DNA of 64,000 nucleotides, from assembly GCA_902515775.1 (NCBI GenBank), contig CABXVU010000003.1:32348-96347 (forward strand). Direction: 5' to 3'. A model generated the notes under the pieces. The model saw only the letters and a program-made list of their open reading frames with translations. It was not told the DNA's origin and searched no databases. Positions 26,798-54,520 of the stretch are shown piece by piece; the first letter of the stretch is position 1, and each line of letters starts with the position of its first letter. The DNA is from an uncultured SAR86 cluster bacterium (GTDB lineage Bacteria; Pseudomonadota; Gammaproteobacteria; Magnimaribacterales; D2472). The translations under genes and the position numbers were made by a program.

Positions 26798-26802
26798 TTA
26801 AT

Positions 26803-28560: not shown

Positions 28561-28599
28561 TTATTTTTATAATAATAAGAAAAAACTAGGATTTATATA

Positions 28600-30293: not shown

Positions 30294-30420
30294 AAATAAT
30301 ATTTACGGTTTTATCTAATAAAGAATTTATTAAATAGTTATTGTAGCTTGAGATTGCATTTTTTAACTTAAGAAAAATAAAATTTTATAATAAGTTCCAA
30401 ATAAGTATTAATATATTCAT

Positions 30421-30903
30421 ATGAACAAAGATCTAGAAAAACGCGTTCAAGCATTAGAAGATACTTTAGCTATTCAGAATTTGAAACATACATATCTCAA
30501 TGCATGCGATACAAAAGATGTCGATGCAATGATTGAAACATTTGTGGCCTCTGAATGCATGATTGATTATGGTCCAGTTGGCTCCTTTTCAAATAGAAAT
30601 GAGCTAGCAGCTGTTTTCCAAGAAGCTGCATGTCATGACTACATGCTTGAATCTCATCATGCACATAACCCACTAATTAATATCATTGATGCCGAAAATG
30701 CTACTGGAAAATGGGCGCTAACCTATAATTTAATAAACACAAATGATAAGACAATTACAACCTTGCAAGGTGAGTATCATGACGTATATAAAAAAATTGA
30801 TAATAAATGGTTAATCAAGGAAACAACATTTGTTGGATGTTCTTCGATTAACTTGGAATTAGAAGAAGATTTGCTAAAGGTTATTTTTGCGGGGAGACCT
30901 TAA
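30421..30903 (+). CDS. NTF2/SnoaL-like fold protein
   Basis: The opening LEDTLAIQNLKHTYLNACD and the 160-aa length are typical of SnoaL_4-type proteins. Confidence 0.55.
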   Translation: MNKDLEKRVQALEDTLAIQNLKHTYLNACDTKDVDAMIETFVASECMIDYGPVGSFSNRNELAAVFQEAACHDYMLESHHAHNPLINIIDAENATGKWALTYNLINTNDKTITTLQGEYHDVYKKIDNKWLIKETTFVGCSSINLELEEDLLKVIFAGRP

Positions 30904-31493
30904 GCGGGAGTGGCGATGCAGCTCAAAAGATAAGCATTTGCAGCTCTTACCGCTTCATTTAATCCAACTTCAGTTAGCTTAGTGGTCTCTTTGACGTCTA
31001 ATGAGAGAATAGACACAATGATTTGAGTCACAACTAGAAATACACCAGACTTGTTAAACATACTTGGTAGCCCGATAGATTGCTCAATATGCATTTGAAT
31101 GGTCTCTGCAATTTCATATAAATCAGAACTCGGCATGGGAGGCGAGACAGTATTTTCTAGTAGTAGTTTTTGAGCTCCCGGATTGTTTCGATAGAATTCA
31201 ATAATTAAAATCACACATTCCTTTAAACAAAGCATGTAATCCGCCTCAGGGTTTTGACTTAAATTACTTTTGAGATACTGATTACAATCCTCCAAATATC
31301 TTTTAATTAGAGCTGACTTGATTTCATCAGGAGTTTCAAAAAATTTATATGTTGAGGTACGTTTTAAACCAGCAAACATAGAAATCTTTGCAATAGTCAG
31401 TGATTCGATGTTGCTTTCTTCTAACAGATCATTAGATGCATCTAAAATCTTTTTTATGCGTTCAATGCTTCTTTTCTGTTTTGGTTTTTGCAT
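30900..31493 (-). CDS. TetR-family transcriptional regulator
   Basis: N-terminal HTH region SIERIKKILDASNDLLEESNIESLTIAKISMFAGLKRTSTYKFF. Confidence 0.8.
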   Translation of the reverse strand: MQKPKQKRSIERIKKILDASNDLLEESNIESLTIAKISMFAGLKRTSTYKFFETPDEIKSALIKRYLEDCNQYLKSNLSQNPEADYMLCLKECVILIIEFYRNNPGAQKLLLENTVSPPMPSSDLYEIAETIQMHIEQSIGLPSMFNKSGVFLVVTQIIVSILSLDVKETTKLTEVGLNEAVRAANAYLLSCIATPA

Positions 31494-31559
31494 AATTTAT
31501 TATCGACATTTGTTGTAAAAAAAACAATTAAACTAGCACAATAAAAAAAAATAGTGTAT

Positions 31560-31592
31560 TGTGTCATTATTGTGACATAAATGTGTCACCAT
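31560..31592. promoter_or_regulatory. three tandem 11-bp units forming overlapping TGTCA/TGACA palindromes (candidate operator)
   Basis: The units are TGTGTCATTAT / TGTGACATAAA / TGTGTCACCAT. TGTCA-N6-TGACA-N6-TGTCA lies about 70 bp upstream of the tetR start. Confidence 0.4.
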
Positions 31593-31775
31593 AGAAACAG
31601 TAAATATGAATACAAAAAAAATTCTTAAGCAACATGGCTTGCTACCAAAGGCTTCAAAAGCACATGAAATGCAATTGTTTGGATTTTTATCAATGTGGGT
31701 AGTTTTAACAGCTATAGTCTATTTTTCTTAAAAATAAAATTTTTCTAAGATCAGAAATTATTTTTAGGCATATTT

Positions 31776-31793
31776 GTGTCATTTTTATGTCAC
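31776..31793 (+). promoter_or_regulatory. Pho-box-like PhoB binding site upstream of pit
   Basis: GTGTCATTTTTATGTCAC compares with the E. coli consensus CTGTCATA(A/T)A(A/T)CTGTCA(C/T). The two TGTCA(T/C) half-sites are 11 bp apart. A CATAGT -10-like hexamer follows at about 31800. Confidence 0.55.
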
Positions 31794-31907
31794 TTGCTTC
31801 ATAGTTTTGTTGCAAACAAACTAAAAATTGTTTCAAAGAATTAATCATATTTTCACATAAATCTTCTCTAATAAGATCCATATTTTAACTATCTTACATT
31901 TCAAAAT

Positions 31908-33158
31908 ATGGAAACTTTATTTTTAGATCCTTTCACAATATTACTTATAGCTGGTTTCATTGGTTTTTTCATGGCGTTTGGCATCGGGGCAAATGACGTT
32001 GCCAATTCAATGGGAACATCAGTTGGAAGTAGAGCTATCACTATAAAACAAGCCATAATCATTGCAGCAATATTTGAATTTCTTGGAGCATTTTTAGCTG
32101 GTGGAGAGGTTACTTCAACCATCAGAAAAGGGATTGTTGATCCAGAGTTATACGCAGATCAGACAAATATTTTTGTTATTGGAATGCTTTCAGCGCTTCT
32201 TGCTGGAGGAACCTGGTTGTATTTAGCTAGCTTAAGAGGTTGGCCAGTTTCAACTACTCATACTATCGTTGGTTCAATTGTTGGATTTGTTTTGATTACC
32301 AAAGGCGTTGACGCTGTTTCATGGGGCAAAGTAGGTAATATTGCTATGAGCTGGTTCACATCTCCATTATTTTCAGCAACATTAGCGTTTGGTTTATATA
32401 TTTCCGCTAAAAAACTTATTTTAGACAGATCTAATCCTGGTGAAGCTGCGATAAATTACATCCCTTTTTATAGCTTTCTTGTTGCTGTTGTCATTTCACT
32501 TGTTACTGCAAGAAAGGGCTTAAAGCATGTTGGAGTTGAGTTCACTGATAATGAAGTCTATTTATTTATTGCAATATTTAGCTCACTAGTTGGGCTTGCA
32601 ACCGCTTTTTTCTTAAGAACCAATAAAGAACAAATTATGCGAGAGGGCGGCATTGAATTTGCTTTCGGTATATTAATGGTTGTGTCTGCTAGTGCTATGG
32701 CCTTTGCACATGGATCAAATGATGTTGCGAATGCAATTGGTCCTTTGGCAGCAATTGTAAGTGTTGTAGACACAGGAGAAATAGGATCTAAAGCTGCTAT
32801 TAGTCCCTGGGTCCTATTTATTGGAGCGATTGGAATTGTTTTTGGTTTAGCCACTCTTGGATCAAGAGTAATTACAACAGTTGGCAGAAAAATCACAGCC
32901 CTAACACCTAGTCTTGGATTTTCAGCTGAGATGGCTACAGCATCAACAGTTGTTGCTGCATCATATTTAGGCTTTCCAATTTCAACAACTCATACACTGG
33001 TTGGAGGAGTAATTGGTGTTGGTTTAGCTAAGGGTGCTGAGCATTTAGATTTTTCATCAATAAAAAGAATTATTGCCTCTTGGTTAGTAACAATTCCAGC
33101 TGGAGCCGCATTTACCGTTTTATTTTATGTTTTACTCAGAATTATTTTCGGAGTGTAG
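31908..33158 (+). CDS. pit: inorganic phosphate transporter, PiT family
   Basis: The duplicated signature GANDVANSMGTSVGS (N-terminal half) and GSNDVANAIGPLAA (C-terminal half) is present, and the protein is multi-TM. Confidence 0.9.
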   Translation: METLFLDPFTILLIAGFIGFFMAFGIGANDVANSMGTSVGSRAITIKQAIIIAAIFEFLGAFLAGGEVTSTIRKGIVDPELYADQTNIFVIGMLSALLAGGTWLYLASLRGWPVSTTHTIVGSIVGFVLITKGVDAVSWGKVGNIAMSWFTSPLFSATLAFGLYISAKKLILDRSNPGEAAINYIPFYSFLVAVVISLVTARKGLKHVGVEFTDNEVYLFIAIFSSLVGLATAFFLRTNKEQIMREGGIEFAFGILMVVSASAMAFAHGSNDVANAIGPLAAIVSVVDTGEIGSKAAISPWVLFIGAIGIVFGLATLGSRVITTVGRKITALTPSLGFSAEMATASTVVAASYLGFPISTTHTLVGGVIGVGLAKGAEHLDFSSIKRIIASWLVTIPAGAAFTVLFYVLLRIIFGV

Positions 33159-33161
33159 AAA

Positions 33162-34097
33162 GTGTCTTCTAGATATTTTATAAATAAGGTATTTATTATT
33201 GCATTTTCATTTTTTTTATTAGGCAATAGTGTCTTTGCATCGCCTACCTGGTACGGAAAAATATTTGTTGACGCTCAGTCTTTTTCCAATGATGTCATGG
33301 GAACCAAAACTGATATTAAAAATAATTCTTCAAGATTAGGGCTAAAAGGTGAGTATTCTTTTTCTGAAAATTCTAATCTTAGATTAATTTATCAAGCAGA
33401 GTATCAGTTTGATCCTGTAGATGGAAAGGCTAGAGGAGATGATGGTACTCTCAAACAGCGGAATACATTCCTTGGTATTAAATCAAATATAGGGACACTT
33501 TTTGCAGGCACCCACGATTCAGCGCTTAAAAAGTCTCAATTAAAAATTGATTTATTTAATGATCTTGCACCCGATATTAAAAATATTCTACATGGCGAAA
33601 ATCGGCTTGAAGATTTTATTGGTTATACAACCCCAAAATACAAAAACATGATTTCCGCAACATTTAATAGTATTAAAAATCCCTCATCAGAAAAAAAATA
33701 TAAATCTTATTCAATAAATTTTTCTAGCGATGCTTTTCAAGCAGCTATAGGAATTGATGAATCAATGAAAGGTTATGATAGCTCGAGAATCTCAATTTTA
33801 ATTCCAATTAATAAATTTAAGATTGGATTGTTGGCTCAAAAAACTAAAAATCTTGTATCAGGTCAAAGTGATAGTGGGCATGTCACTAGTTTATCCAGAA
33901 AAATAAGCTCCAAGGGAACGTTTAAAATTCAACGCTCATCATCAAACATGAAGATAAGCACAGGAAGACAAACCACAATTGGATATGATTACCAATTTAA
34001 AAAATATCTTAAAATTTTTACATTCTATTCTCAATTGGAGTCCAATAATTCAAAAGAGAAAGACATTTTTTCCATAGGGCTAGAATATAAATTTTAA
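33162..34097 (+). CDS. Gram-negative porin
   Basis: Signal peptide, WYGKIFVDAQ...SRLGLKGEYSF typical of the first porin strands, and C-terminal GLEYKF. GTG start 3 nt after pit. Confidence 0.7.
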   Translation: MSSRYFINKVFIIAFSFFLLGNSVFASPTWYGKIFVDAQSFSNDVMGTKTDIKNNSSRLGLKGEYSFSENSNLRLIYQAEYQFDPVDGKARGDDGTLKQRNTFLGIKSNIGTLFAGTHDSALKKSQLKIDLFNDLAPDIKNILHGENRLEDFIGYTTPKYKNMISATFNSIKNPSSEKKYKSYSINFSSDAFQAAIGIDESMKGYDSSRISILIPINKFKIGLLAQKTKNLVSGQSDSGHVTSLSRKISSKGTFKIQRSSSNMKISTGRQTTIGYDYQFKKYLKIFTFYSQLESNNSKEKDIFSIGLEYKF

Positions 34098-34136
34098 AAT
34101 TTTTTAATGATTTTATATTAGCGTTACAATGTAGAC

Positions 34137-35183
34137 ATGTCTTGGTTTGTAAAGCTCATCTTCTCTTTAAGTATTTTCTTTTTAGCTAGTTGCTCCAGTG
34201 ATTACTCGATTAATGCAATTGCTGAGACAGAGCCTGTTGCATCGAGTGGAGATGCCGCAGATGATCCAGCAATAGTTATAAATTTTAGTAATCCAGCGCA
34301 ATCACTTATTTTTGGAACTGATAAGCGAGCAGGAGTTTATTTATATAATCTTTCTGGAGAAAAAATTTCATATGCTTCTTTAGGCGAAATAAATAACATA
34401 GACGTTAGACAGGCTGATAATAAAATTTATGTAGCTGCATCAAATAGAACAGCTCAATCAATTGAGTTTTGGGAATTTAATCAGCAAGAATTTTTTAAAA
34501 ATATTGTTTATTCAGATAACCTTTTTGATTTATCTACGCAGTCAATAACCATACCTACTAATATAGATGTCTATGGTATTTGTGCTGGCTTAATAGATGG
34601 AGTGCCCATTGTTTTTATTACAGAGGATAAGGGTCCTCGCGTTGAGTTGTGGGTACCCCAGACTCGAACACTCATAGGAACTTTCAGTAATGGAGGCGAA
34701 TCAGAGGGTTGCGTTTTTGATGATGAAAATAAAACGGTTTTTATTTCAGAAGAAGAGGTGAATGGAGTTTTAAAAACCTACAACTTAAATAATGAATTTC
34801 CATTTGAAAGTCCCTTCATTGTGGATTCTCGAGAGGGAAATATTGGCGGTGATCCAGAGGGGCTTACAATCTATAAAACTTCTGAAAAAGAGGGTTATAT
34901 CTTACTTTCATCCCAAGGAGATAATAAATACAACGTTTATAATCGAATTTATCCTCACGAATTTATCTCAAGTTTTACTATTGATGATGACCCCCAAGGC
35001 ATTGACGGCACATCAGAAACTGATGGGATCGACGTCACCAATTACAATCTAAGAGGTAAATTTTCCAAAGGTCTGTTTGTTGCTCAGGACGGTTACAACT
35101 TTGATGGAAAAGAGCTGAAGAATCAAAATTTTAAAATTGTTCCTTTTAATCCCATTCTTAAATTTATAAATAAAAGAAAGTAG
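34137..35183 (+). CDS. beta-propeller phytase (3-phytase), lipoprotein
   Basis: Lipobox FLASC. AADDPAIVINFSNPAQSLIFGTDKRAGVYLYNLSGEK matches the BPP DDPAIW...GT.K..G..VY.L.G signature. Confidence 0.8.
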   Translation: MSWFVKLIFSLSIFFLASCSSDYSINAIAETEPVASSGDAADDPAIVINFSNPAQSLIFGTDKRAGVYLYNLSGEKISYASLGEINNIDVRQADNKIYVAASNRTAQSIEFWEFNQQEFFKNIVYSDNLFDLSTQSITIPTNIDVYGICAGLIDGVPIVFITEDKGPRVELWVPQTRTLIGTFSNGGESEGCVFDDENKTVFISEEEVNGVLKTYNLNNEFPFESPFIVDSREGNIGGDPEGLTIYKTSEKEGYILLSSQGDNKYNVYNRIYPHEFISSFTIDDDPQGIDGTSETDGIDVTNYNLRGKFSKGLFVAQDGYNFDGKELKNQNFKIVPFNPILKFINKRK

Positions 35184-35185: not shown

Positions 35186-36025
35186 TTATTCTTTGGTTGT
35201 TGATTCAATAAGTTCTGTTGAGTAACCTGAGTAAACCTCTATGAACTCTGGATGAGTCAATATCCAAAATTCATCATTTTCAATTTTTTTAAAAACAATG
35301 ATAGCTAAGTCTTCAGGACTCATGCCTTCTTTAACGCCATCAGCAAGCCATTGAGCATTATTCTTGGCGCTTTCGTGTTGGTCAATTGAGGATTCGTCAA
35401 GATCTAATCCAAGGTGATCTCTTTCAATGATGTTGGTTTGAACTAATCCAGGACAGAGTACAGACACCCCAACCTTATCAATGTCTGCTAAATCCTCATG
35501 TAAGGTTCGGGTTAAACCTACAACTGCATGCTTGGTCGTTGTATAAGGAGCAAGCGCAGGGCCAACAATGATACCTGCCATGGATGATGTATTAATAATG
35601 TGACAGCGTTCTTGGCTAGCAACCATCTCATCAACAAACAGATTTAAGCCATAAATTATACTCATTAAATTTACATCAATAATTCGTTGCCAGTTTTTTT
35701 GGTCTGCTTTCCATGCTCTACCTTCTAAAAAGATTCCTGCGTTATTAAATAGGAAATGAACTGTGCCAAACTCACTTTCAATTTGTCCTTTCGCTTTTGC
35801 AAAGTCTTCTAAGTTAGATACATCACACTGGATGATCATCGATGGACAATCTGCCATAAGGCTATGAGTCTCACTTAAACCATTTTTGTTGAGGTCCATT
35901 AAGACTACATTCATTTGAAGTTTTGCAGCATGCAATGCCAAGCCTCTACCAATTCCACTGGCAGCACCTGTAATTAAGACAGTTTTATTTGTAAAAATAT
36001 CAGCTTGCAAGATACCCACCATCAA
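35186..36025 (-). CDS. SDR family oxidoreductase
   Basis: TGAASGIGR, NNAG, and YTTTKHA (Y-x3-K). Confidence 0.9.
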   Translation of the reverse strand: MMVGILQADIFTNKTVLITGAASGIGRGLALHAAKLQMNVVLMDLNKNGLSETHSLMADCPSMIIQCDVSNLEDFAKAKGQIESEFGTVHFLFNNAGIFLEGRAWKADQKNWQRIIDVNLMSIIYGLNLFVDEMVASQERCHIINTSSMAGIIVGPALAPYTTTKHAVVGLTRTLHEDLADIDKVGVSVLCPGLVQTNIIERDHLGLDLDESSIDQHESAKNNAQWLADGVKEGMSPEDLAIIVFKKIENDEFWILTHPEFIEVYSGYSTELIESTTKE

Positions 36026-36764
36026 TGGGGTAATAAGATCCTGTAATATAAGATGCTTCTGATGATGCTAAAAAATATATTAAATTAGCCACTTCATCTG
36101 CAGAAGCCACTCTTTTCATAGGAACTCTTTGCAAAAGGTATTGCATGACATTTTCATCTTTCATCAATTCTGTATTCATTGGCGTATCTATGACACCTGG
36201 ACCGATTGCATTTGCCCTTATGTTAATCGTTGCGTAGTCTTGCGCAATTGATTTGGTGAGACCAACCACGGCATGTTTGGAGGCACCATACGAAGCTTGA
36301 GCTGCACTGGCTCTTGTTCCCATTATCGATGCCACATTCACAATGGAACCTTCTTCAATGTTCATCGCAGTAGCAAGCTTTAAGAATTCTCTACAGGCAT
36401 AAAAAGTTCCATGTAAATTTATGTCTATGGTTCTGAGCCATTCATCTACTGAGTATTCATGCAAGGGATTCAATGCTGGGCTGATGCCTGCACAATTAAT
36501 TAATACTTGAGCAGGGCGTTTTTCCTCTAATAAGGCATTAAAAATAGACTCAATTTGAGAATGATTTGTTATATCGCAATGAGTAAAATTTAATTTGTAT
36601 GTATCTGATTTAAGGTCATTGATTGATTTATCTCCAGTTTCTTTATTAGCGTCTAAGCTCAACACCTCATATCCTTCTTTTAAAAAACGTTTTACTGCGC
36701 CTAGACCGATTCCAGAGGCTCCGCCAGTTATCACTGCCAAAGGTTGAGGTTTATTAGTCGACAT
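36000..36764 (-). CDS. SDR family oxidoreductase
   Basis: TGGASGIGL, NCAG, and YGASKHA (Y-x3-K). Confidence 0.9.
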   Translation of the reverse strand: MSTNKPQPLAVITGGASGIGLGAVKRFLKEGYEVLSLDANKETGDKSINDLKSDTYKLNFTHCDITNHSQIESIFNALLEEKRPAQVLINCAGISPALNPLHEYSVDEWLRTIDINLHGTFYACREFLKLATAMNIEEGSIVNVASIMGTRASAAQASYGASKHAVVGLTKSIAQDYATINIRANAIGPGVIDTPMNTELMKDENVMQYLLQRVPMKRVASADEVANLIYFLASSEASYITGSYYPIDGGYLAS

Positions 36765-36923
36765 ATCTATTTATAAAAATTTATTCTTAAAGTTCTAACT
36801 AATCCACTATAACGAATCATGAATTTTCTAACAATATAAATAAAATGATTAGATTTCTTGACAAAAAAAATCCTATTGATACTCGTTGATTAATGAATTT
36901 ATTTATAAGATAGTTAAATCCTA

Positions 36924-38588
36924 ATGTTGCATTCAGACAAATACATTCAAGCCCTAATTAGCGAGCAACCTTTTTTTGAAATTCATCAAGAAAATGTTCT
37001 TGGAGTAAAGATGGATGTTTTTAAAAATAGGCCTAAGTCATTGGTGGATTTCATTGAATCATCTGCAGTACATGGCGACAAACCTTATTTAATATTTAAA
37101 GACCAAGTTATTACCTTCAATCAACATTTAACTCTTGTAAAAAAGGCTGCACATATTCTTCAGACTAAATATGAAGTTCAACAAGGGGATAGGGTGGCTA
37201 TATATGCTGCCAATTCACCTGAGTGGATAATATTTTTTTGGGCCACAGTCAGTCTTGGCGCAATTGCCTGCGGATTGAATGGTTGGTGGAAAGGTTCTGA
37301 GGCAATTAAAGCAATTAATGATGCAGATCCTAAAGTCGTTGTTGCAGATCAAGCGCGATTTGAAAGAATTGACGAAACACTTGAGCATCCTGTCATTATA
37401 TTTGAGCAGCATGATCTCCCAGCACATGAACAAGCACTTGATTCATTTATTCGAGTGGACGAAGATGAATGCGCATGCCTTTTATATACATCCGGAACCA
37501 CAGGGACTCCAAAAGGCGTCATGACATCTCATAGATCAATGATTGCAAACTCAACGCTCCAAATGCTTCAAGGAGCTGCCGTATCCCAAGATTCCTCCAG
37601 TAAAGGCATCGATTGGTCCAAGAACACCCCAACAACTCTGCTTACTTCACCCTTATTTCATGTGTCAGGATTATCTGCAGGAGCTGTTACGAGTCTATTT
37701 GCAGGTTCTACAACTTTGCTTTATGACGGGAGATTTTTGGCAAATAGAGTCATTGAGTTAATCCAAAAATATAATGTGACATCATGGGGAGGAGCAGTTC
37801 CAACAGCCCTAAAAAGAGTCTTAGATGATGCAGAGGCACAAGGATTAAAAATGATGAGTGTACTGGTAGTAGGTGGGGGGGGTGCACCAATGCCCCCAGA
37901 GTTAATTTCGCGAACAAAAGATGTTTTTCCAAATTCAAAGTATAGTTTTGGATATGGCTACGGACTTACAGAATCTGGCGCCATTACAATTATTAATTGG
38001 GGAGATAATCTTAAAAATGAACCAGCTTCCCCAGGGCAGCCAATGCCAACAATTCAAGTTCAGCTAAGAGATGAGGATGGGGAGTTGATAGATAAGGACT
38101 CAATTGAGGGTGAAATATATGTTAAAAGCCCCTCAGTTATGCTTGGCTACTATAACAATACTCTTGCTTCTAAAGATTCATTAACTGAGGATAGGTGGCT
38201 AAAAACCGGAGATTGGGGATTTAAGAAAAAATCTCTTTACTATATTTCTTCTAGACGCACTGATCTGATTTTAAGGGGAGCAGAGAATGTTTACCCGCAG
38301 GAGATAGAATTGGTGATAGATTCTCATGAAGGAGTAGAGGAGTCAGCTGTTATTGGAATACCACACGATGATTTGGGTGAGGAAGTAATGGCAATTGTGT
38401 ATGCAAAGAAATCTGATGTTGACAATTTAGAATTAAGTGCATGGGTGGCAAAAGATCTTGCTGACTTTAAAGTGCCCTCTAAGTGGAAATTTGTTAATTC
38501 GCCATTGCCAAGAAATGCTTCCGGTAAATTGATGAAACATGTTTTAATAGACACATCTAAAAATACAATGATTGAAGAAAATGAGTGA
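36924..38588 (+). CDS. AMP-dependent acyl-CoA synthetase/ligase
   Basis: YTSGTTGTPKGV, GYGLTESGA, and the C-terminal SGKLMK. Confidence 0.9.
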   Translation: MLHSDKYIQALISEQPFFEIHQENVLGVKMDVFKNRPKSLVDFIESSAVHGDKPYLIFKDQVITFNQHLTLVKKAAHILQTKYEVQQGDRVAIYAANSPEWIIFFWATVSLGAIACGLNGWWKGSEAIKAINDADPKVVVADQARFERIDETLEHPVIIFEQHDLPAHEQALDSFIRVDEDECACLLYTSGTTGTPKGVMTSHRSMIANSTLQMLQGAAVSQDSSSKGIDWSKNTPTTLLTSPLFHVSGLSAGAVTSLFAGSTTLLYDGRFLANRVIELIQKYNVTSWGGAVPTALKRVLDDAEAQGLKMMSVLVVGGGGAPMPPELISRTKDVFPNSKYSFGYGYGLTESGAITIINWGDNLKNEPASPGQPMPTIQVQLRDEDGELIDKDSIEGEIYVKSPSVMLGYYNNTLASKDSLTEDRWLKTGDWGFKKKSLYYISSRRTDLILRGAENVYPQEIELVIDSHEGVEESAVIGIPHDDLGEEVMAIVYAKKSDVDNLELSAWVAKDLADFKVPSKWKFVNSPLPRNASGKLMKHVLIDTSKNTMIEENE

Positions 38589-39027
38589 TCAAAAAGATCT
38601 GCTAAGAGCTCCCTTTGAGCTTGCCTATAATTATAAGCGTTCAAGTGGTCCTCTGATGTCAAAATTTTTTGACGCCCTAGCAGAACAAAAAATCTTAGGC
38701 ACAAAAAGTAGCACTGGAAAGGTTTATGCTCCGGCTGCTGAATTTGATCCGGAAACTCATGAGTCATTGAGTGATTTAGTTGAAGTTGGACCTGGGGGAG
38801 TGATCGAATCATTTAGTTGGATTGAAGAGCCAAAACATCATCACTTAATTAAAAATCCATTTGCATTTGCTTTAATCAAATTGGATGGAGCTGATACAGC
38901 TTTGCTCCATATGGTTACCGAGTGTAATGAGGCAGATCTAAAAATTGGATCAAGGGTCACAGCAAATTGGTCTGCAACTATGGAGAATCGAATTACCGAT
39001 ATTAAATTTTTTACTTTAGAAAAATGA
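38581..39027 (+). CDS. DUF35 OB-fold protein lacking the zinc ribbon
   Basis: OB-fold region GVIESFSWIEEP...FALIKLDGADTALLHMV...LKIGSRVTANW. Only one Cys occurs in the whole protein. The ATG at 38581 is preferred over the TTG at 38572. Confidence 0.65.
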   Translation: MSDQKDLLRAPFELAYNYKRSSGPLMSKFFDALAEQKILGTKSSTGKVYAPAAEFDPETHESLSDLVEVGPGGVIESFSWIEEPKHHHLIKNPFAFALIKLDGADTALLHMVTECNEADLKIGSRVTANWSATMENRITDIKFFTLEK

Positions 39028-39521
39028 GCGAAGAAGAAAAAAAAGATTACGCCGAGTCTCCAATAAATTTGGAATATCACTATACAGCTGGATCAGCCAC
39101 CACCCGATTTCTTAATCAAGTTAAAGAGGGCAAAATTGTAGGCCAGTCATGCCCAAAATGCAGCGCTGTCTATGTACCGCCTAGAGGCAGCTGTCCAAGA
39201 TGTGGAGTGGCAACAAACATCGAGGTTCCATTGACTGATAAAGGTTGCATTGAATCATTCACCATTGTGCATATTCCTATTCCAGGTAATCCCATCGTTC
39301 CGCCATATGTTTGTGCAATGATCAGGCTCGATGGAGCTAACATTTCTTTTTTGCATCTCATTCAAGGAATTGATGTTGAAGAAATAAGAATTGGGATGCG
39401 TATACAAGCAGTTTGGAAGCCTAAAGATGAATGGACTCATTCATTAGAGAACATCAAATGGTTTACTCCTATAGATGAACCAGATGTTGATGTTGCAACA
39501 TTGAGGTTTGAAGAATCATGA
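39024..39521 (+). CDS. DUF35 OB-fold protein with N-terminal zinc ribbon
   Basis: CPKCSAVYVPPRGSCPRC (CxxC-x11-CxxC) is followed by the OB fold GCIESFTIVH...MIRLDGANISFLHLI...IRIGMRIQAVW. An ATGA overlap links it to the upstream gene. Confidence 0.8.
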   Translation: MSEEEKKDYAESPINLEYHYTAGSATTRFLNQVKEGKIVGQSCPKCSAVYVPPRGSCPRCGVATNIEVPLTDKGCIESFTIVHIPIPGNPIVPPYVCAMIRLDGANISFLHLIQGIDVEEIRIGMRIQAVWKPKDEWTHSLENIKWFTPIDEPDVDVATLRFEES

Positions 39522-40573
39522 AAAAAGTAGCAATCGTGGGATATGCTCAACACCCCATTTTAGAGAATGCGGGAGCTTTAAACGAAGTGGAACTCATCAT
39601 GCCTGTTGTTCATCAGCTGTTTGATGAATTAGGCATCAGTCAAAACAACATAGATTTTACCTGCTCAGGTAGTTGTGATTATTTGCAAGGAGCTGCTTTT
39701 GCATTTGTTGAAGGTTTATCTGCCATTCAAACTAATCCTCCCATTAAAGAGTCGCATGTAGAAATGGATGCAGCTTGGGCGATGTATGAATCAATGCTAA
39801 AAATTCAAATGGGAGATGCAGATACTGCATTGATTTATGGATTTGGTAAATCTTCTCCCGGTAGACTCGATTCAATTATTTCATTACAAATGGATCCTTA
39901 CTACATTTCACCTCTTTGGCCAGATCGAGTCAGTTTAGCTGCAATACAGGCAAGGGTGCTGCTTGAAAAAAATATCGTAACTCCTGAACAAATGATTACA
40001 GCAGTTATTGAGGCAAGAACTAATTCTAAAAATAATAAAAATGCACTTGTTACTGAGCTGGTGGATAAAGAAGCATATTTAGCAAGTGAGAAAATTTCTT
40101 CTCCACTCAATGAATTTGATTGTCCTCCAATATCTGACGGATCTTCTGCCATGATTATTGCCTCAGAAGAAAAAGCATATGATTTTACCGATCAACCCAT
40201 TTTTATTGAAGGCATCGATCATAGAATTGAATCATCGAATATAGGCTCACGGGATCTTTCAAAACCTACTGGGATACTGGCTTCAATTGAGCAGTTAAAA
40301 CTTGAAAAAACAAATTTTGATGTTGCTGAGTTACATACTCAATTTAGTCATGAGGTGCCTTATTTACAATCCGTTTTAAACCTTAATGATGTTCCTACAA
40401 ATCTTTCTGGCGGACCATTGGTTGGTAATGTCATGATGTGTGCAGGTTTGGATGCAATTGGTAAAACTTACGAGTCATTAAAATCCAATGATCTTACAAA
40501 TGGTCTGGCGCATGCATCCTCTGGCCCATGTTTACAACATAATATGCTTGTTCATTTGGAGAAAAAATCATGA
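39518..40573 (+). CDS. thiolase-fold protein (SCP-x/Ltp-like), apparently lacking catalytic Cys and His
   Basis: N-terminal KKVAIVGYAQHP, SDGSSAMIIAS and NLSGGPLVGNVMMCAG. ATGA overlaps occur at both ends. Confidence 0.7.
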   Translation: MKKVAIVGYAQHPILENAGALNEVELIMPVVHQLFDELGISQNNIDFTCSGSCDYLQGAAFAFVEGLSAIQTNPPIKESHVEMDAAWAMYESMLKIQMGDADTALIYGFGKSSPGRLDSIISLQMDPYYISPLWPDRVSLAAIQARVLLEKNIVTPEQMITAVIEARTNSKNNKNALVTELVDKEAYLASEKISSPLNEFDCPPISDGSSAMIIASEEKAYDFTDQPIFIEGIDHRIESSNIGSRDLSKPTGILASIEQLKLEKTNFDVAELHTQFSHEVPYLQSVLNLNDVPTNLSGGPLVGNVMMCAGLDAIGKTYESLKSNDLTNGLAHASSGPCLQHNMLVHLEKKS

Positions 40574-41718
40574 TTCAGGCGGGTGTAATTGGAGTTGGGC
40601 AAACTAAATATGATGCCAAAAGAAGGGATGTATCCATGGGTGGATTAGTCCGAGAGGCAATAGATAATGCCATGTTAGCTGCTAATGTTGAATGGGATGC
40701 AATAGATGCTGTCATATTAGGTAAAGCACCAGATATGTTTGAGGGTGTGGTTATGCCTGAGTTATATTTAGCTGATGCTATTGGAGCCGTTGGTAAGCCG
40801 GTTCTGCGAGTTCATACAGCTGGAAGTGTTGGAGGGAGCACAGGAGTTATTGCTGCAACCCATGTTTGTTCAGGACAATTTAAAACAGTTTTAACAGTAA
40901 CATTTGAAAAACAATCTGAATCAAATGCAACATGGGCACTGTCACCACGTTACCCATATTCTCCTCATATCAATGCAGGAGCTGGAGGATATTTTGCTCC
41001 ATTTATTAGAGAGTACATTCGCAGATACGATGCTCCAGAACATATTGGTTGGAAAGTTGCTGTAAAAGATCGTTTGAATGCACTCAAGAATCCGTTAGCT
41101 CATCTGCATATTCCAGGGATAGATGAAAAAATGGTAAGTGATACCCCTATGCTTTGGGAGCCACTGAGATATTTAGAGAGCTGCCCATCGTCCGATGGAG
41201 CTTGTGCCATGGTGATTACATCCAAAGATCTTGTCGGTTCAAGGGATGTTGCTTGGATAAAAGGAATGGCAGTTAGATCTGAGGGTACTTTGTCCGCAGG
41301 CAGAGATGAGGTCAATCCTCAGGCAGGAATTGATTGCGCAAAAGATATCTATGATCAAGCAGGCATAACCAATCCATACAAGGATATTGATTGTGCAGAA
41401 ATTTATGTTCCATTTTCTTGGTATGAGCCAATGTGGCTGGAAAATTTAGGATTTTGTGATCTAGGAGAAGGATGGAAACTGACCGATAAAGATGCAACAG
41501 CTATAGATGGAGAAATACCTTTTAATATGTCTGGTGGAGTTATGTCGTCCAATCCGATCGGAGCATCGGGCATGATTCGTTTTGGTGAAGCAGCCTTACA
41601 AGTTATGGGTAAGGCAAATGACCATCAAGTTGAGGATGCGAAAGTTGCAATGGGACATGCTTATGGTGGAGCTGCACAATTTTTTGCGATGTGGATTGTC
41701 TCATCATCACTTGATTAG
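40570..41718 (+). CDS. thiolase-fold protein (SCP-x/Ltp2-like), apparently lacking catalytic Cys and His
   Basis: GVIGVGQTKY, RVHTAGSVGGSTG at the expected nucleophile loop, SSDGACAMVITS, and NMSGGVMSSNPIGASG where thiolases have GHP. Confidence 0.75.
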   Translation: MIQAGVIGVGQTKYDAKRRDVSMGGLVREAIDNAMLAANVEWDAIDAVILGKAPDMFEGVVMPELYLADAIGAVGKPVLRVHTAGSVGGSTGVIAATHVCSGQFKTVLTVTFEKQSESNATWALSPRYPYSPHINAGAGGYFAPFIREYIRRYDAPEHIGWKVAVKDRLNALKNPLAHLHIPGIDEKMVSDTPMLWEPLRYLESCPSSDGACAMVITSKDLVGSRDVAWIKGMAVRSEGTLSAGRDEVNPQAGIDCAKDIYDQAGITNPYKDIDCAEIYVPFSWYEPMWLENLGFCDLGEGWKLTDKDATAIDGEIPFNMSGGVMSSNPIGASGMIRFGEAALQVMGKANDHQVEDAKVAMGHAYGGAAQFFAMWIVSSSLD

Positions 41719-41731
41719 TAAGGAGATATTT

Positions 41732-42529
41732 ATGAATACCGAGCATGCGATTGTAGAAGAAAAAGGCCACATCATGGTCATCACACTTAATCGTCCTGAA
41801 AAAAGAAATGCGTTAAGTCCAGGCATGTTGTTGACTGTATATGAAGCTTGGAGAAAGCTTGATGAAGATTCCAATTTAAGATGCGCTATCTTGACTGGTG
41901 CAGGCGGTACTTTTTGTTCTGGAGCTGACCTAAGTGCTATGAAGGATGGAAATGAAGATTCTGAGATGATGGAAAAATTAAAAGAAATTCCTGATTTACA
42001 TTGGCAATCTCTACTAAGGCACAACAGGCCTAATAAACCAATCATTGCAGCAGTCGAGGGGTTTGCACTTGCTGGAGGTACAGAGATTTTACAGGGTACA
42101 GATATTAGAGTTGCAGGAAAAAGTGCTGTGTTTGGTTTAACTGAGCCCTTAAGAGGTCTATTTCCATTAGGTGGTTCGACCGTCCGACTTAGAAGGCAAA
42201 TACCATATACTCTAGCAGCAGAAGCATTGTTAACTGGGAGGAGAATTTCCTCTGAAGAAGCATTAAGATTTGGGCTGATTGGTCATATCGTAGATGATGG
42301 AACTGCGCTAGAGAAAGCCATGGAAATTGCGGAAACCGTCAGTGCAAATGCACCTTTATCTATTCAGGCGATTGTAAAATCTTTAAGAGAAATTGATGAG
42401 AGCTATCTAGAATCAGAAGCATTGGAAAAAGAATTAGAAATAGGGCAACCCGTTTTCTCCACAGAAGATATGATGGAAGGTCTGACTGCTTTTGCAGAAA
42501 AAAGAAAACCAAATTTCAAAGGTAAGTGA
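41732..42529 (+). CDS. enoyl-CoA hydratase (crotonase family)
   Basis: ITLNRPEKRNAL, oxyanion GAGGTFCSGADL, and both catalytic Glu contexts (LAGGTEIL and GLTEPLRGLFP). AGGAGA RBS at 41721. The track start at 41582 lies inside the upstream gene. Confidence 0.9.
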   Translation: MNTEHAIVEEKGHIMVITLNRPEKRNALSPGMLLTVYEAWRKLDEDSNLRCAILTGAGGTFCSGADLSAMKDGNEDSEMMEKLKEIPDLHWQSLLRHNRPNKPIIAAVEGFALAGGTEILQGTDIRVAGKSAVFGLTEPLRGLFPLGGSTVRLRRQIPYTLAAEALLTGRRISSEEALRFGLIGHIVDDGTALEKAMEIAETVSANAPLSIQAIVKSLREIDESYLESEALEKELEIGQPVFSTEDMMEGLTAFAEKRKPNFKGK

Positions 42530-43260
42530 GTAAACTTTTAACAGAGACCGAAGAAGGTATTCGTACCTTAATTTTTAATCGTCCTAAAAAAAAGAACGCA
42601 TTTGATGCTGAATTGTGGGCGATGTTTAGGAACGAGCTAAATCTAGCAAGTGATGATCCAGAGATCTATTCAGTGATTGTAACCGGTTCGGCTAATACTT
42701 TTTCATCAGGTGTTGATCTAAATAGCATGATGGGAGATGGGGGTGCTGAATACGAAGAGCCATTTGAAACTTGTATCGATGCATTAATAAATTTTAAAAA
42801 ACCATTAATAGGAGCTGTTGAGGGGGCTGCTGTAGGTGGAGGCGCAACCATTTTATTGCATTTTGATGCTGTTTTTATTTCTCCTAATGCAAAAATAAAA
42901 TATCCATTTTCTGAATTAGGTTTAGCCCCTGAGGTTGGCAGTTCTTATCTATTATTTCAGGCACTTGGATATCAACAAGCGGCTCAACTTTTATTTCAAT
43001 CTAAAGCTATTGAGGGAACAAAATATTTTGAGTTAGGTCTAGCCAAATATGTTGGTGATGATTTTCTAGATCAAGCTAATAGTTATGCACGGGAGTTAAA
43101 GGAACAATCACTTAGCTCAATTATAGAAACAAAAGCTATCTTAAAATCATTTATGTTAGAAGAACTTGCTAAGGCTCGCTCAATGGAAACCAAAGCAATG
43201 AAAAAATTGTTTGGTTCTGAAGATAACTTAAAAGCTGTAGAAAAGTTTTTTAATAAATAA
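42526..43260 (+). CDS. crotonase-family enoyl-CoA hydratase/isomerase (one-Glu type)
   Basis: FNRPKKKNAF and SSGVDL. GGGATILL places Thr where the first catalytic Glu normally sits, and FSELGLAPE retains the second Glu. The GTG start forms a GTGA overlap. Confidence 0.8.
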   Translation: MSKLLTETEEGIRTLIFNRPKKKNAFDAELWAMFRNELNLASDDPEIYSVIVTGSANTFSSGVDLNSMMGDGGAEYEEPFETCIDALINFKKPLIGAVEGAAVGGGATILLHFDAVFISPNAKIKYPFSELGLAPEVGSSYLLFQALGYQQAAQLLFQSKAIEGTKYFELGLAKYVGDDFLDQANSYARELKEQSLSSIIETKAILKSFMLEELAKARSMETKAMKKLFGSEDNLKAVEKFFNK

Positions 43261-44316: not shown

Positions 44317-44931
44317 ATGTCAATTGAAGAAAGAATAGATCGACTTGAATCGCTTGATGAAATTAGACAATTAGCAGCCAAGTATTCTGTAACTCTAGAT
44401 ATGCGAGATATTGATATGCATGTAAATCTTTTTGTGCCAGATGTTCGAGTGGGTAAAGAGGAGAGTGGCCGTCAAGCTCTTAAAAAATGGGCTGATGCAA
44501 CTTTTAGAGATAAATTTACAGGCACTTCTCATCACATAGGAAATCACATTATTGATTTTGAGACGCCTGATTCAGCTATTGGCTTGGTCTATTCAAAAAA
44601 TGAACATGAAACTAATAATGAGTGGATTATCATGCAAATGCTTTACTGGGATTCATATAAAAGAATAAATGGAACCTGGCTTTTTAAAAAAAGACTACCT
44701 ATGTACTGGTATGCAACAGACTTAAACAAACCACCCCTTGGCAATAAAAAAATGCGCTGGCCGGACGAAGATAATTATGATGGATACTTTCATGACTTAT
44801 TCCCATCTTGGAAAGAGTTTTGGAGCAGTGAATACATACGTGAAAATGATGTCACAGAGCCTGTTGAAGCCAATCAATTTTTAAGAGCTCTTAGGCGCGG
44901 TTCTGAACCAGGTAAATTAAAGGTTAAATAA
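44317..44931 (+). CDS. NTF2/SnoaL-like fold protein
   Basis: The opening IEERIDRLESLDEIRQLAAKYSVTLD is typical of SnoaL_4. No closer assignment is possible. Confidence 0.55.
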   Translation: MSIEERIDRLESLDEIRQLAAKYSVTLDMRDIDMHVNLFVPDVRVGKEESGRQALKKWADATFRDKFTGTSHHIGNHIIDFETPDSAIGLVYSKNEHETNNEWIIMQMLYWDSYKRINGTWLFKKRLPMYWYATDLNKPPLGNKKMRWPDEDNYDGYFHDLFPSWKEFWSSEYIRENDVTEPVEANQFLRALRRGSEPGKLKVK

Positions 44932-48300: not shown

Positions 48301-48531
48301 ATGGAAGAACAGGATATCTTAATAGAGGAAGGAATGAATCTGCTATATAGCGGAATGATTGTTGTATTCAGTTTTTTGGTGTTGCTGATAATTTCAGTCA
48401 ATATACTAAGAGTCATCTTTTCTGTATTAACTCAAAATAAAGCTGAGGAGAGCTTTGATCCGTTATTAGTTGAGCAAAATAATATTCATCATAAAATTAT
48501 AAAAGAAGTGTTAGGAGATATTAGATCGTGA
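48301..48531 (+). CDS. oadG: oxaloacetate decarboxylase gamma subunit
   Basis: A 76-aa single-TM protein immediately upstream of oadA and overlapping it. Confidence 0.7.
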   Translation: MEEQDILIEEGMNLLYSGMIVVFSFLVLLIISVNILRVIFSVLTQNKAEESFDPLLVEQNNIHHKIIKEVLGDIRS

Positions 48532-50282
48532 CAGATTCTAAAAAAATTGGTGTAACTGAATTGGTATTAAGAGATGCGCATCAATCCTTGCTTGCAACTA
48601 GATTCAGATACTCTGATATGGAAACTGCCTTGAAGGATCTTGACAGCATTGGTTTTTGGTCAGTTGAATCTTGGGGTGGAGCTATATTTGATTCTTGTAT
48701 TAGATATTTAGGTGAGGATCCTTGGGAAAGAATTAGGAAAATAAAATCAATGATGCCCAATACTCCTCAACAAATGCTTTTGAGAGGGCAAAATTTACTT
48801 GGTTACAAACATTATTCTGATGATGTAGTGAATAAATTTGTTGAGTGCTCTAAAAAGAATGGCGTAGATGTTTTCAGGGTTTTTGATGCCTTAAATGATA
48901 CAAGAAATATGCATCAAGCTTTACAAGCAGTCATTAGTACAGATGGCCATGCGCAGGGAACTATTTCTTATACAACAAGTCCTGTTCACACGATCGATTT
49001 ATGGGTAGAGCTTGCAAAGAAAATTCAAGATATGGGCGCGCATTCATTGGCAATCAAAGATATGGCAGGATTATTGAAGCCTTATGTAGCATTTGAGTTA
49101 GTTTCTAAACTGAAAGAGGAGCTTGAAATTCCTATTCATTTGCATTGTCATGCAACCACAGGTTTTTCAGTAGCTACCGGTGTAAAAGCAATAGAAGCAG
49201 GATTAGATGTAATAGATACTTCAATTTCTTCTATGAGTATGACATATGGACACACACCAACAGAAACAATGATAAGCATTCTTGATGGAACAAATCGTGA
49301 GACAGATTTAAATCTTGAAAACCTCAAACCTATTGCTGAGCATTTTCAGTCAGTAAGAAAAAAATATAAGAAATTTGAAGGATCTTTAAGGGGTGTGGAT
49401 GCAAGAATCATAGCATCGCAAGTTCCAGGCGGGATGCTTACAAACCTTGAAAATCAGTTAAAAGCTCAAGATTCAATTGATAAATTTGATAGCGTTATTA
49501 AGGAAATCCCAAAAGTTAGAAAAGAACTAGGTTTTATTCCCCTAGTTACACCTACTTCACAGATTGTAGGAACACAATCTGTTATCAATGTCTTGTCTGG
49601 TTCTAGATATTCAACTATTACCAATGAAGTGAAATCTTTATTGAAAGGTGAATATGGAGAAACTCCTGCACCAGTTGATAAAGATTTGCAGCAACAGGCT
49701 ATTGGTGATAGTGCTGTAATTAATTGCAGACCAGCTGACTTGTTGAATGATGATTATCAATCAGCAAAAGAAGACTTTGAAAAGGCAATGACTGAAAATA
49801 ATCTCTTGTCAGAATCATCTGATGAAAACGTCCTCATTTATACAATGTTTCCAGAAATTGGAGTGAATTTTTTAGCAAACGTCGATAATCCAGATTACTT
49901 TGAACCTGAGCCATTAGATATTCATGAATTAACCGATTCTTCTTATCTTGTAAGCGTGGATGATAAAGAATATTCGGTAACTCTTAAAGCTGATAATTCA
50001 GTGATAATAAATGATGGATCGCAGGTAAATAAAGTTAACAGCAGCCCAATAGTTGAAGCTGGACTTGGAACAATCATAGAAGCTCCTCTTGGTGGAAATA
50101 TCTTTAGAACAATTGCCTCCGAGGGAGATTCTGTTGAGGCAGATACAACCATTCTCATACTAGAGGCTATGAAGATGGAGACAGAGATCAAGGCACCTTC
50201 AGCTGGAATCATCTCAAAAATTTTTGTTAAGCCTGGAGATATTGTTAAACCTGGCAATCCTTTATTTGAAATTCAAAGTTAA
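48528..50282 (+). CDS. oadA: oxaloacetate decarboxylase alpha subunit (carboxyltransferase + biotin carrier)
   Basis: N-terminal [16 protein letters not shown] and C-terminal biotinylation motif [10 protein letters not shown]. Confidence 0.9.
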
Positions 50283-53992: not shown

Positions 53993-54004
53993 TTTTTTCC
54001 CTAA

Positions 54005-54352
<348 letters not shown>

Positions 54353-54413
54353 TTATAAAAATTTAGAATAGTTAATATTAAAACCTGCACTATTATGCAC
54401 TTAATAAAAGCAA

Positions 54414-54442
54414 AATATAGTTTTTGTGTGATATTTGGTCAG
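54414..54442 (-). promoter_or_regulatory. candidate sigma-70 promoter for the second glnK-amtB module
   Basis: The minus strand reads CTGACC-N17-TATATT, about 70 nt upstream of glnK. Confidence 0.3.
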
Positions 54443-54472
54443 AATTGACTCACTTTTGCACAATTTCAATGC

Positions 54473-54506: not shown

Positions 54507-54520
54507 ATATGATTTAAGCT

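Follow-up and report, generated by a model that had tools for sequence, protein, structure and literature searches.

In a 64-kb window of DNA from a SAR86 cluster bacterium (the window being the whole stretch analyzed), seven co-directional genes at positions 36924-43260 of the + strand, taken from the open reading frame (ORF) list of the window, form an operon for an acyl-coenzyme A (acyl-CoA) ligase, two DUF35 proteins, two thiolase-fold proteins and two crotonases. We propose that this operon probably represents, in SAR86, the aldol-lyase module known as Rv3521/Ltp4/Ltp3, acting in sterol side-chain catabolism at the C24 branch. A preliminary description of this DNA had considered the arrangement unplaceable in any characterized system; instead, it corresponds to the Rv3521-Ltp4-Ltp3 module, accompanied by EchA19 and a steroid acyl-CoA ligase.

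The first gene (36924-38588) encodes a 554-residue acyl-CoA ligase with the Pfam domains AMP-binding and AMP-binding_C. It is followed by dufA (38581-39027), the product of which is a DUF35 OB-fold protein without zinc ribbon that matches PF01796 (OB_ChsH2_C) only, and by dufB (39024-39521), which combines a rubredoxin-like zinc ribbon (PF12172, zf-ChsH2) with PF01796 (OB_ChsH2_C). The next two genes encode the thiolase-fold subunits, a 351-residue Ltp4-like protein with a non-canonical active site and zero Pfam matches (39518-40573), and a 382-residue Ltp3-like protein that matches Thiolase_C_1 and, marginally, Thiolase_N (40570-41718). Two crotonases with an ECH_1 domain complete the operon, an EchA19-type enoyl-CoA hydratase termed ech1 (41732-42529) and a second, isomerase-like protein termed ech2 (42526-43260). 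Direct reading of the junctions agrees with the co-directional, overlapping genes reported in the preliminary description: 5 of the 6 operon junctions are start/stop overlaps of 4 or 8 nt, compared to 6 of the 33 remaining same-strand junctions in the window. ATGA overlaps are present at 39024, 39518 and 40570 and a GTGA overlap at 42526, and the fifth, absent from that description, is an 8-nt overlap (ATGAGTGA) between the ligase stop and the probable ATG of dufA at 38581. The start of dufA is TTG at 38572 in the ORF list and ATG at 38581 according to a gene caller run on the identical public contig. The sole gapped junction, between the ltp3-like gene and ech1, spans 13 nt and contains AGGAG. 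Start/stop overlaps are frequent in this streamlined genome, yet the operon is enriched for them.

Sequence comparison identifies the operon as an orthologue of the actinobacterial Rv3521-Ltp4-Ltp3 module, EchA19-type hydratase included, in which the DUF35 pair is split into two genes; we equate the two DUF35 and two thiolase-fold proteins with this module because they reach or come close to the cutoffs of its NCBIfam models, are similar to the proteins of Tsukamurella tyrosinosolvens and have DUF35 halves in collinear order. The link was made by tblastn through a Tsukamurella record among plasmid sequences rather than through M. tuberculosis or R. rhodochrous sequences; a Nocardia match was unannotated. 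The Tsukamurella locus consists of genes for an F420-dependent oxidoreductase, a crotonase, an AMP-ligase, a 309-residue OB-fold protein, ltp4 and ltp3, with a divergent pair of P450 and “steroid 3-ketoacyl-CoA thiolase” genes a few kb further on. It is syntenic with the cholesterol cluster of M. tuberculosis, mirroring the gene layout that PMC6429209 lists for Rv3515c-Rv3523 and Rv3545c/Rv3546. Its proteins score above the NCBIfam cutoffs for PRK07937 (593 bits), PRK08313 (734 bits) and EchA19 (428 bits, cutoff 400). In SAR86, the 382-residue protein matches PRK08313 with 635 bits (cutoff 514), and the corresponding model for the 351-residue protein is PRK07937, “lipid-transfer protein”, which is also the NCBI label on its close homologues. 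The Ltp3-like protein is 60% identical to Tsukamurella Ltp3 over 98% of its length, and the Ltp4-like protein is 42% identical to Tsukamurella Ltp4 over the full length.

The 309-residue Tsukamurella protein possesses two OB_ChsH2_C domains and a single zf-ChsH2 domain (residues 176-203) in its second half. DufA and DufB align collinearly to the two halves of this fused protein, with identities of 42% to residues 1-133 and 48% to residues 157-299, respectively. We take Rv3521 to be a DUF35 pair of the same kind, the first without and the second with a zinc ribbon. The CxxC motif is absent in 78 of the 79 members of the DufA family, and residues C43, C46 and C57 are conserved in at least 90% of the DufB family. 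The SAR86 operon and the actinobacterial system have the DUF35-DUF35-ltp4-ltp3 order and the loss of thiolase residues in common; however, the DUF35 domains are separate genes in SAR86 and fused in Tsukamurella, the EchA19-type gene lies inside the SAR86 operon, an isomerase-type crotonase is added, and the operon sits in a streamlined marine gammaproteobacterium outside any large KstR-type cluster.

The function of the actinobacterial counterparts comes from genetics in Rhodococcus and Mycobacterium. As cited in PMC6273163, PMC6678751 and PMC10832528, Wilbrink 2012 reported ltp3 and ltp4, with FadD19, as essential for C24-branched sterol side chains and not for cholesterol, and the same work is cited for Ltp3/Ltp4 in PMC6593523; where the first three of these sources discuss the two genes, they term them aldol-lyases. 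In one Mycobacterium, ltp3, ltp4, echA19, fadD19, fadD17 and fadE26/27 are neighbors, and phytosterol raises their expression 70- to 100-fold, with a value of ~97-fold for the ltp3/ltp4 module (PMC6593523). In the literature searched and the PDB, we found neither an enzyme assay nor a structure of any Ltp3 or Ltp4, and the same literature yielded no explicit tie between Ltp3/Ltp4 and DUF35 partners.

Further analysis of the two thiolase-fold subunits revealed the loss of the canonical catalytic residues. Phmmer alignments of the 382-residue protein to the Cys-bearing thiolases 7yvy (Pyrococcus), 6hsj (zebrafish SCP2-thiolase) and 6esq (Methanothermococcus) gave E-values of 1e-22 to 1e-29 with the same residue pairing in all three, in which the nucleophilic Cys pairs with a Gly (HTAGSVGG), the HDCF motif with YVPF and the GHP motif with SNP. 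This pairing was extended to a merged alignment of 83 Ltp3-like sequences, 78 Ltp4-like sequences and four PDB thiolases, in which the Ltp3-like and Ltp4-like sequences come from fetched loci. A genome scan with a Mycobacteriales metagenome-assembled genome (MAG) query supplied the best 80 of at least 596 matches, none of these 80 from Mycobacterium or Rhodococcus. In the Ltp3-like family, the nucleophile is replaced by Gly (G85), HDCF by YVPF (Y279-V-P-F282) and the GHP His by Asn (N328), each in 83 of 83 sequences. In the Ltp4-like family, the nucleophile position is a Glu in 78 of 78 sequences, within an invariant ESHVEMD loop (E78-S-H80-x-E82-M-D84); HDCF becomes H-[ATV]-[QP]-F with the His retained in 73 of 78, and the GHP His is Asn in 69 of 78.

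The preliminary description had quoted four peptide strings from these regions, concluding by eye that both proteins lack the canonical Cys and His and that neither is a classical Claisen thiolase. All four strings are present, and both conclusions are confirmed by the phmmer pairings and the 83/78-sequence alignment; judged from these residues, neither subunit can act as a classical Claisen thiolase. An ordinary β-ketothiolase pair, suggested by database names of homologues such as “acetyl-CoA C-acetyltransferase”, has next to no probability, as the canonical catalytic residues are missing family-wide in both subunits. A canonical thiolase was accordingly rejected, as all 83 Ltp3-like and all 78 Ltp4-like sequences lack the nucleophile, the Cys of HDCF and the His of GHP. 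The closest solved relative by sequence is the archaeal “thiolase-like protein” ST0096 of Sulfolobus tokodaii (PDB 4yzo), which has a Ser at the nucleophile position and retains HD and GHP, and is another thiolase-fold protein with an altered nucleophile.

Despite having no Pfam match, the 351-residue protein is a true thiolase-fold homologue and an SCP2-type paralogue of the 382-residue protein, because hhalign of the two families gave a probability of 99.8% across 332 columns, and the AlphaFold2 model of the 351-residue protein (predicted template modeling score, pTM, 0.86) matches thiolases in Foldseek with template modeling (TM) scores of 0.72-0.81. The AlphaFold2 model of the 382-residue protein has a pTM of 0.87. 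In these monomer models, the predicted local distance difference test (pLDDT) falls below 50 in residues 54-79 and 116-136 of the Ltp4-like protein and residues 117-136 and 326-329 of the Ltp3-like protein. These segments coincide with the most invariant motifs, including the SNP loop of the Ltp3-like protein and the stretch preceding the ESHVEMD loop of the Ltp4-like protein, which in the models suggests that they may become ordered in a complex, at an interface or active site, or upon substrate binding.

The Foldseek neighbors of both models include 6esq, PhlC, MucABC and BbsB (TM 0.75-0.89), all of which have DUF35 partners. They bring in a different reading, in which the operon encodes a C-C bond-forming or acyl-transfer complex like PhlABC/MucABC or the archaeal thiolase/HMG-CoA synthase/DUF35 complex (HMG, 3-hydroxy-3-methylglutaryl), or a BbsAB-type thiolase. 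All these systems combine thiolase-fold and DUF35 proteins in one complex, as proposed here, and PhlABC/MucABC and the archaeal complex even possess two different thiolase-fold subunits, as the SAR86 set does. However, they retain the catalytic Cys, which is absent here in 83 of 83 and 78 of 78 sequences, have a single DUF35 type and perform biosynthetic or thiolytic chemistry; the second subunit of PhlABC/MucABC and the archaeal complex is similar to β-ketoacyl-acyl carrier protein synthase III (KAS III) or HMG-CoA synthase, compared to a second SCP2-type paralogue in SAR86. With identities of at most 25% and a catabolic genomic context, this reading is very unlikely. Its individual candidates were rejected as well: PhlABC and the archaeal complex since the operon has no KAS III/PhlA or HMG-CoA synthase domain and its second subunit is SCP2-type, and BbsAB since the Cys is absent and the scores stay far below cutoff (BbsB, 95 against 750; BbsA, 24 against 250). 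The phmmer match of PhlC to the SAR86 protein (1e-11) covers only the C-terminal 120 residues.

The characterized steroid side-chain aldolases were compared as well. Ltp2 and Sal are homodimers of SCP2-thiolase fold with a DUF35 domain clamped on each protomer; Sal has a Gly where thiolases carry the nucleophilic Cys, and the catalytic base acting on the β-hydroxyl is the Tyr of the YDCY (Sal) or YDHF (Ltp2) motif, equivalent to the His of the SCP2 HDCF motif (PMC12329534). The preliminary description had cited Ltp2 as reported to have lost both the thiolase Cys and His; this calls for qualification, since Ltp2 does have a His within YDHF, and the key common features are the Gly in place of Cys and the motif Tyr (PMC12329534). 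Both Ltp2-ChsH2(DUF35) (PDB 6ok1) and Sal-Shy(DUF35) (PDB 9myr) share the SCP2-thiolase fold with the SAR86 subunits (TM ~0.8), at ~25% sequence identity to the SAR86 protein (phmmer, 5e-14 and 1e-12). The nucleophile-position Gly and the first Tyr of the motif match G85 and Y279 of the Ltp3-like protein, the equivalence being made through the SCP2 HDCF motif (PMC12329534). They also have in common with the SAR86 set a DUF35 partner, a preceding hydratase and a β-hydroxyacyl-CoA barred from thiolysis, the last by proposal for the SAR86 substrate. The motif itself differs, YVPF in the Ltp3-like protein against YDHF and YDCY, with Pro281 at the Cys/His position, and Asn328 falls at the position of Ltp2 Tyr344 and Sal Gln352, as inferred from a spacing of 49-50 residues. 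In addition, Ltp2 and Sal are homodimeric, whereas SAR86 has two paralogous thiolase-fold genes, the products of which are proposed to pair as a heteromer; and their DUF35 domain is fused to a MaoC hydratase, whereas SAR86 has two stand-alone DUF35 genes, crotonases and no MaoC domain.

Because the Gly-for-Cys replacement and the motif Tyr are common to Ltp2, Sal and the Ltp3-like protein, the latter is, on sequence grounds, probably the catalytic aldolase subunit. For SAR86 we infer a complex, with its stoichiometry, reaction and sterol substrate, as follows. The ligase would produce a steroid-type acyl-CoA, which the isomerase-like crotonase and/or an acyl-CoA dehydrogenase (ACAD) encoded elsewhere would convert to the 2-enoyl-CoA. 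The EchA19-type crotonase would hydrate the 2-enoyl-CoA, giving a tertiary β-hydroxyacyl-CoA in the case of a C24-alkylated side chain, and a DufA-Ltp4-Ltp3-DufB heterotetramer would then break the Cα-Cβ bond by retro-aldol cleavage, with propionyl-CoA or acetyl-CoA and a ketone or β-keto acid as products. This heterotetramer would be the pseudo-symmetric counterpart of the assemblies seen in the Ltp2 and Sal structures, which have the arrangement DUF35-aldolase-aldolase-DUF35. In its active site, Tyr279 may serve as the base on the β-hydroxyl, the backbone of Gly85 may contact the hydroxyl, and Asn328 would take the place of the GHP His; the Ltp4-like protein would be a diverged partner, the invariant acidic/His loop of which completes the site or binds the substrate. 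A retro-aldol step is chemically sensible: when a C24-alkylated 24(25)-enoyl-CoA is hydrated, the product is a tertiary alcohol, which no dehydrogenase can oxidize. The reasoning for Ltp2 is the same. The HMG-CoA lyase step of leucine and Liu/Atu acyclic terpene degradation follows a similar logic, in which a β-methyl branch blocks β-oxidation and is dealt with by carboxylation, hydration and the splitting of a tertiary 3-hydroxyacyl-CoA by a lyase; the likeness is confined to pathway logic, as HMG-CoA lyase is a TIM-barrel metallolyase without homology to Ltp3/Ltp4. The scheme of ligase, hydratase and retro-aldol cleavage for a branched or unsaturated acyl-CoA, already sketched in the preliminary description, is the best reading of the operon and fits the proposal in the literature for the orthologous genes.

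The enzymes encoded around the core provide further indications of the substrate. The top NCBIfam model of the ligase is Str24CoAsynCasG (steroid-24-oyl-CoA synthetase CasG), with 547 bits against a cutoff of 750 and 333 bits for the runner-up, and the ligase shares only 32% identity with the Tsukamurella ligase in the FadD19 position. The ech1 product passes PRK07799 (367 bits, cutoff 316), the family that includes M. tuberculosis EchA19 (PMC8204306), reaches 343 bits for the EchA19 equivalog (cutoff 400), is 53% identical to Tsukamurella EchA19 and has both catalytic hydratase Glu residues. In the ech2 product, the first catalytic Glu is replaced by Thr in 4 of 4 orthologues and the second is not conserved, whereas LGLxPE is invariant; phmmer against the PDB favors ECI2/peroxisomal 3,2-enoyl-CoA isomerase (8e-25) over rat hydratase (8e-17). 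Thus, of the two crotonases named in the preliminary description, the first is a hydratase by its residues, and the second, lacking the hydratase Glu pair, is probably an isomerase-type enzyme rather than a canonical hydratase.

The CasG-type model raises an alternative in which the same complex and retro-aldol chemistry act on a C5 side chain, so that the ligase would activate a steroid-24-oic acid (bile-acid-like), the EchA19-type hydratase would form (22R)-hydroxy-24-oyl-CoA, and Ltp3/Ltp4 would split this into acetyl-CoA and a C22 aldehyde. M. tuberculosis EchA19 prefers the C24 enoyl-CoA and yields a 22R alcohol that the β-oxidation dehydrogenase ChsB1 does not oxidize, for which aldolytic cleavage, possibly by Ltp3/4, was suggested (PMC8204306), and “bile acid-CoA ligase” homologues occur in SAR86 genomes (PMC11582366). 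Nevertheless, C5 side-chain cleavage is the job of Sal/Shy in other Proteobacteria, ordinary β-oxidation could deal with a secondary alcohol, and M. neoaurum still formed the C22 product upon deletion of ltp3 and ltp4, whereas deletion of the Sal-like atf1 stopped it (PMC10398937). Together with the need for ltp3/ltp4 on branched sterols only, not cholesterol, in the genetics as cited above, these observations make a C5 substrate fairly unlikely.

A more specific version of our proposal can be put forward only tentatively. It joins a 1:1:1:1 pseudo-symmetric DUF35a-Ltp4-Ltp3-DUF35b complex, having one active site with a third catalytic solution not yet described for thiolase-fold aldolases, with a role for ech2 in the Δ24(28) isomerization of abundant algal sterols. 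The invariant Glu-Ser-His-x-Glu-Met-Asp loop of Ltp4 would complete the Gly/Tyr-x-Pro-Phe/Asn set of Ltp3, and ech2 would turn the Δ24(28) bond of 24-methylene and 24-ethylidene sterols, once C26-oxidized and CoA-activated, into the 2-enoyl-CoA without an acyl-CoA dehydrogenase.

The four core genes are co-conserved as a unit, as a gene-neighborhood check called for in the preliminary description demonstrated. The complete four-part module is present in 76 of the 77 fetched loci that have enough upstream flank, which belong to several phyla, and it is tightly coupled, with start/stop overlaps at the module junctions in most loci. Of these 76 loci, 35 have separate DUF35 genes and 41 a fused one; 46 of the 77 loci have an EchA19-like gene within 8 kb, and 57 have a ligase. 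In the Mycobacteriales MAG, the module sits between a P450 gene and genes for a short-chain dehydrogenase/reductase (SDR), two ACADs, a ligase and a TetR protein, and adjoins a FadA5 equivalog (663 bits, cutoff 515) and a KstR-like regulator. Genes for a ligase, an EchA19-like protein, a nitroreductase and a further crotonase accompany the core in Halioglobus maricola and Litorivivens. Another SAR86 lineage, only 83% identical, retains the complete gene order of the window. In the Cellvibrionales loci examined, the nitroreductase-family gene lies downstream of the module between the two crotonases (Halioglobus maricola, L003, 6865-7770; Litorivivens, L088, 13842-15681), an extradiol dioxygenase gene lies upstream of the module in Halioglobus, and a family-III CoA-transferase gene is also present in Litorivivens; the SAR86 operon is without these accessory genes. 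A candidate “Ltp2” ORF near the module in Actinomadura loci was rejected, as it encodes a Cys-bearing SCP2-type thiolase.

The wide distribution of the family bears on whether the substrate is a steroid at all. Module loci number at least 596 in species-representative genomes, including Actinomycetota, Myxococcota/“Deltaproteobacteria”, Chloroflexi and Opitutales, with homologues also on Streptomyces plasmids, and protein searches returned thousands of homologues, among them Halioglobus, Spongiibacteraceae and Litorivivens. This spread, the position of the Litorivivens module among housekeeping genes, the lack of ring-degradation genes in the window and the description of SAR86 as a broad lipid degrader (PMC11582366) would fit a non-steroid β-branched acyl-CoA, such as an isoprenoid, the side chain of a hopanoid or some other lipid with methyl or ethyl branches, in which case the tie to steroids would be specific to actinobacteria. 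This is unlikely: identities of 60-70% among Ltp3-like proteins across phyla argue for one conserved substrate type, the top models of ligase and hydratase are steroid-specific, steroid genes flank the module in actinobacteria, a weak HsaC-like dioxygenase accompanies it in Halioglobus (top model HsaC, 259 bits, below the cutoff of 450), and the window itself contains a ketosteroid dehydrogenase homologue. The Ltp3-like protein is 62-70% identical between SAR86 and Actinomycetota/Myxococcota, the Tsukamurella value being the 60% given above, and 41% of its positions are at least 97% invariant; the Ltp4-like protein is 35-51% identical across phyla with 18% of positions invariant. The three partners of the Ltp3-like protein are merely 35-51% identical across phyla. 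Viewed at this level, the marked conservation of the Ltp3-like protein may mean that one subunit is under extreme constraint or that the module has spread laterally.

Several observations weigh against a C24-branch aldol-lyase. The 351-residue protein scores 399 bits for PRK07937, slightly under the cutoff of 419, and retro-aldol cleavage remains a proposal even for the actinobacterial Ltp3/Ltp4. The Ltp3-like protein is without the second catalytic residue of Ltp2 (Tyr344) or Sal (Cys304), and the Ltp4-like protein also bears invariant candidate catalytic residues, so that either subunit could be the active one. The ligase resembles CasG, which acts on C24 acids, instead of FadD19. The operon encodes neither the C28 carboxylase nor the ACAD that the published pathway requires; no carboxylase suited to the pathway was found in the 64 kb and no ACAD adjoining the operon. 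The sole carboxylase-type genes in the window, at 48528-51571, encode α (HMGL-like, PYC_OADA and biotinyl domains) and β subunits of what is most likely a Na+-pumping oxaloacetate decarboxylase rather than the C28 carboxylase. The P450 of the window was not used as a CYP125 for sterol C26 oxidation, as its top PDB match is EpoK, with a reconstructed CYP125 ancestor at 2e-47, and no KshA/HsaC-type ring-cleavage genes were found in the window.

The genes flanking the operon were also inspected. Two divergently transcribed SDR genes lie upstream on the - strand (35186-36025 and 36000-36764; adh_short/adh_short_C2). The pair has a counterpart at the corresponding place in the SAR86 relative (83% identity), an SDR ~34% identical sits directly after ltp3 in Frankiales/Mycobacteriales loci, and the two genes are possibly linked in function to the operon. 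No convincing operator palindrome was present in the divergent intergenic region 36765-36923, and promoter and terminator scans gave fewer matches than in shuffles. Downstream, a gene for a VTT/DedA-family membrane protein (PF09335; 43273-43779, + strand) starts 12 nt after the operon; it has the same position in the SAR86 relative, was not found adjoining the module in the loci of other taxa, and its membership of the operon is uncertain.

About 20 kb upstream, a tightly packed operon on the - strand (15246-21780) encodes a gamma-glutamyltranspeptidase, an SDR, an acyl-CoA ligase, an FAD flavoprotein and another SDR. Its ligase matches PRK07798 (615 bits, cutoff 543) and its flavoprotein PRK07121.1-4 (650 bits, cutoff 466); the sole strong PDB match of the flavoprotein is the Rhodococcus 3-ketosteroid-Δ4-(5α)-dehydrogenase 4at0 (4e-62), the next being at ~1e-23. 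A PRK07798-type ligase gene is located directly after ltp3 in Halioglobus; in the Mycobacteriales MAG, it lies further downstream of ltp3, after the SDR gene and the two ACAD genes. The 15246-21780 genes look like a second steroid-type operon. Another cluster, at 1006-9012, encodes an acetoacetate-decarboxylase-family protein, an SDR, a cytochrome P450, a fatty-acid desaturase, a TonB-dependent receptor and an acyl-CoA dehydrogenase, and possibly serves lipid or sterol uptake and oxidation. SnoaL_4-fold proteins encoded at 30421-30903 and 44317-44931 flank the region, at the same positions as in the SAR86 relative (L086/L087); with their SnoaL/ketosteroid-isomerase-like fold, they could have a bearing on steroid or polycyclic substrates. 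Between the two catabolic regions lies a phosphate-acquisition island (26102-35183) with a PhoB/PhoR-like two-component pair, Ppx/GppA, PPK2, a PHO4 phosphate transporter, a porin and a lipoprotein with a phytase domain. The SAR86 relative has a TonB receptor in place of PHO4 and the porin upstream of the phytase. Two ammonium-transporter genes (52706-55798, - strand; 428 and 425 residues) are ~530 bp apart.

The window has a G+C content of ~35%, and its FtsK falls in a 90%-identity cluster named “SAR86 cluster bacterium”. Identical operon proteins are encoded on a 110-kb NCBI contig, and the 90% cluster of the Ltp3-like protein has 2,151 members. Steroid catabolic genes were predicted earlier for SAR86 (PMC4810484), and the paper on the first SAR86 isolate described widespread genes for side-chain β-oxidation, along with cyp125 homologues and “bile-acid-CoA ligases”; ring degradation was confined to some lineages (PMC11582366). 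Neither of the two papers mentions Ltp3/Ltp4.

Altogether, the operon is a marine gammaproteobacterial member of the known Ltp3/Ltp4 kind, a kind that is itself mechanistically uncharacterized. No step in the bacterial degradation of sterol side chains is understood less well than that of Ltp3/Ltp4, which are known from knockouts and expression data only. The comparative data define an obligate four-component module of two different DUF35 units and two different thiolase-fold subunits, with a conserved genomic tie to the EchA19 hydratase, the physiological role of which remains open (PMC8204306). The module enzymes are also of interest for the industrial conversion of phytosterols to steroid synthons. 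The presence of the operon in SAR86 fits recent genome-based claims that these bacteria feed on membrane-steroid side chains. It also points specifically to algal sterols alkylated at C24, with what would be consequences for marine carbon cycling; if the tentative scheme with Δ24(28) isomerization is true, one of the most abundant bacteria of the ocean could strip carbon from the C24-alkylated sterols of phytoplankton.

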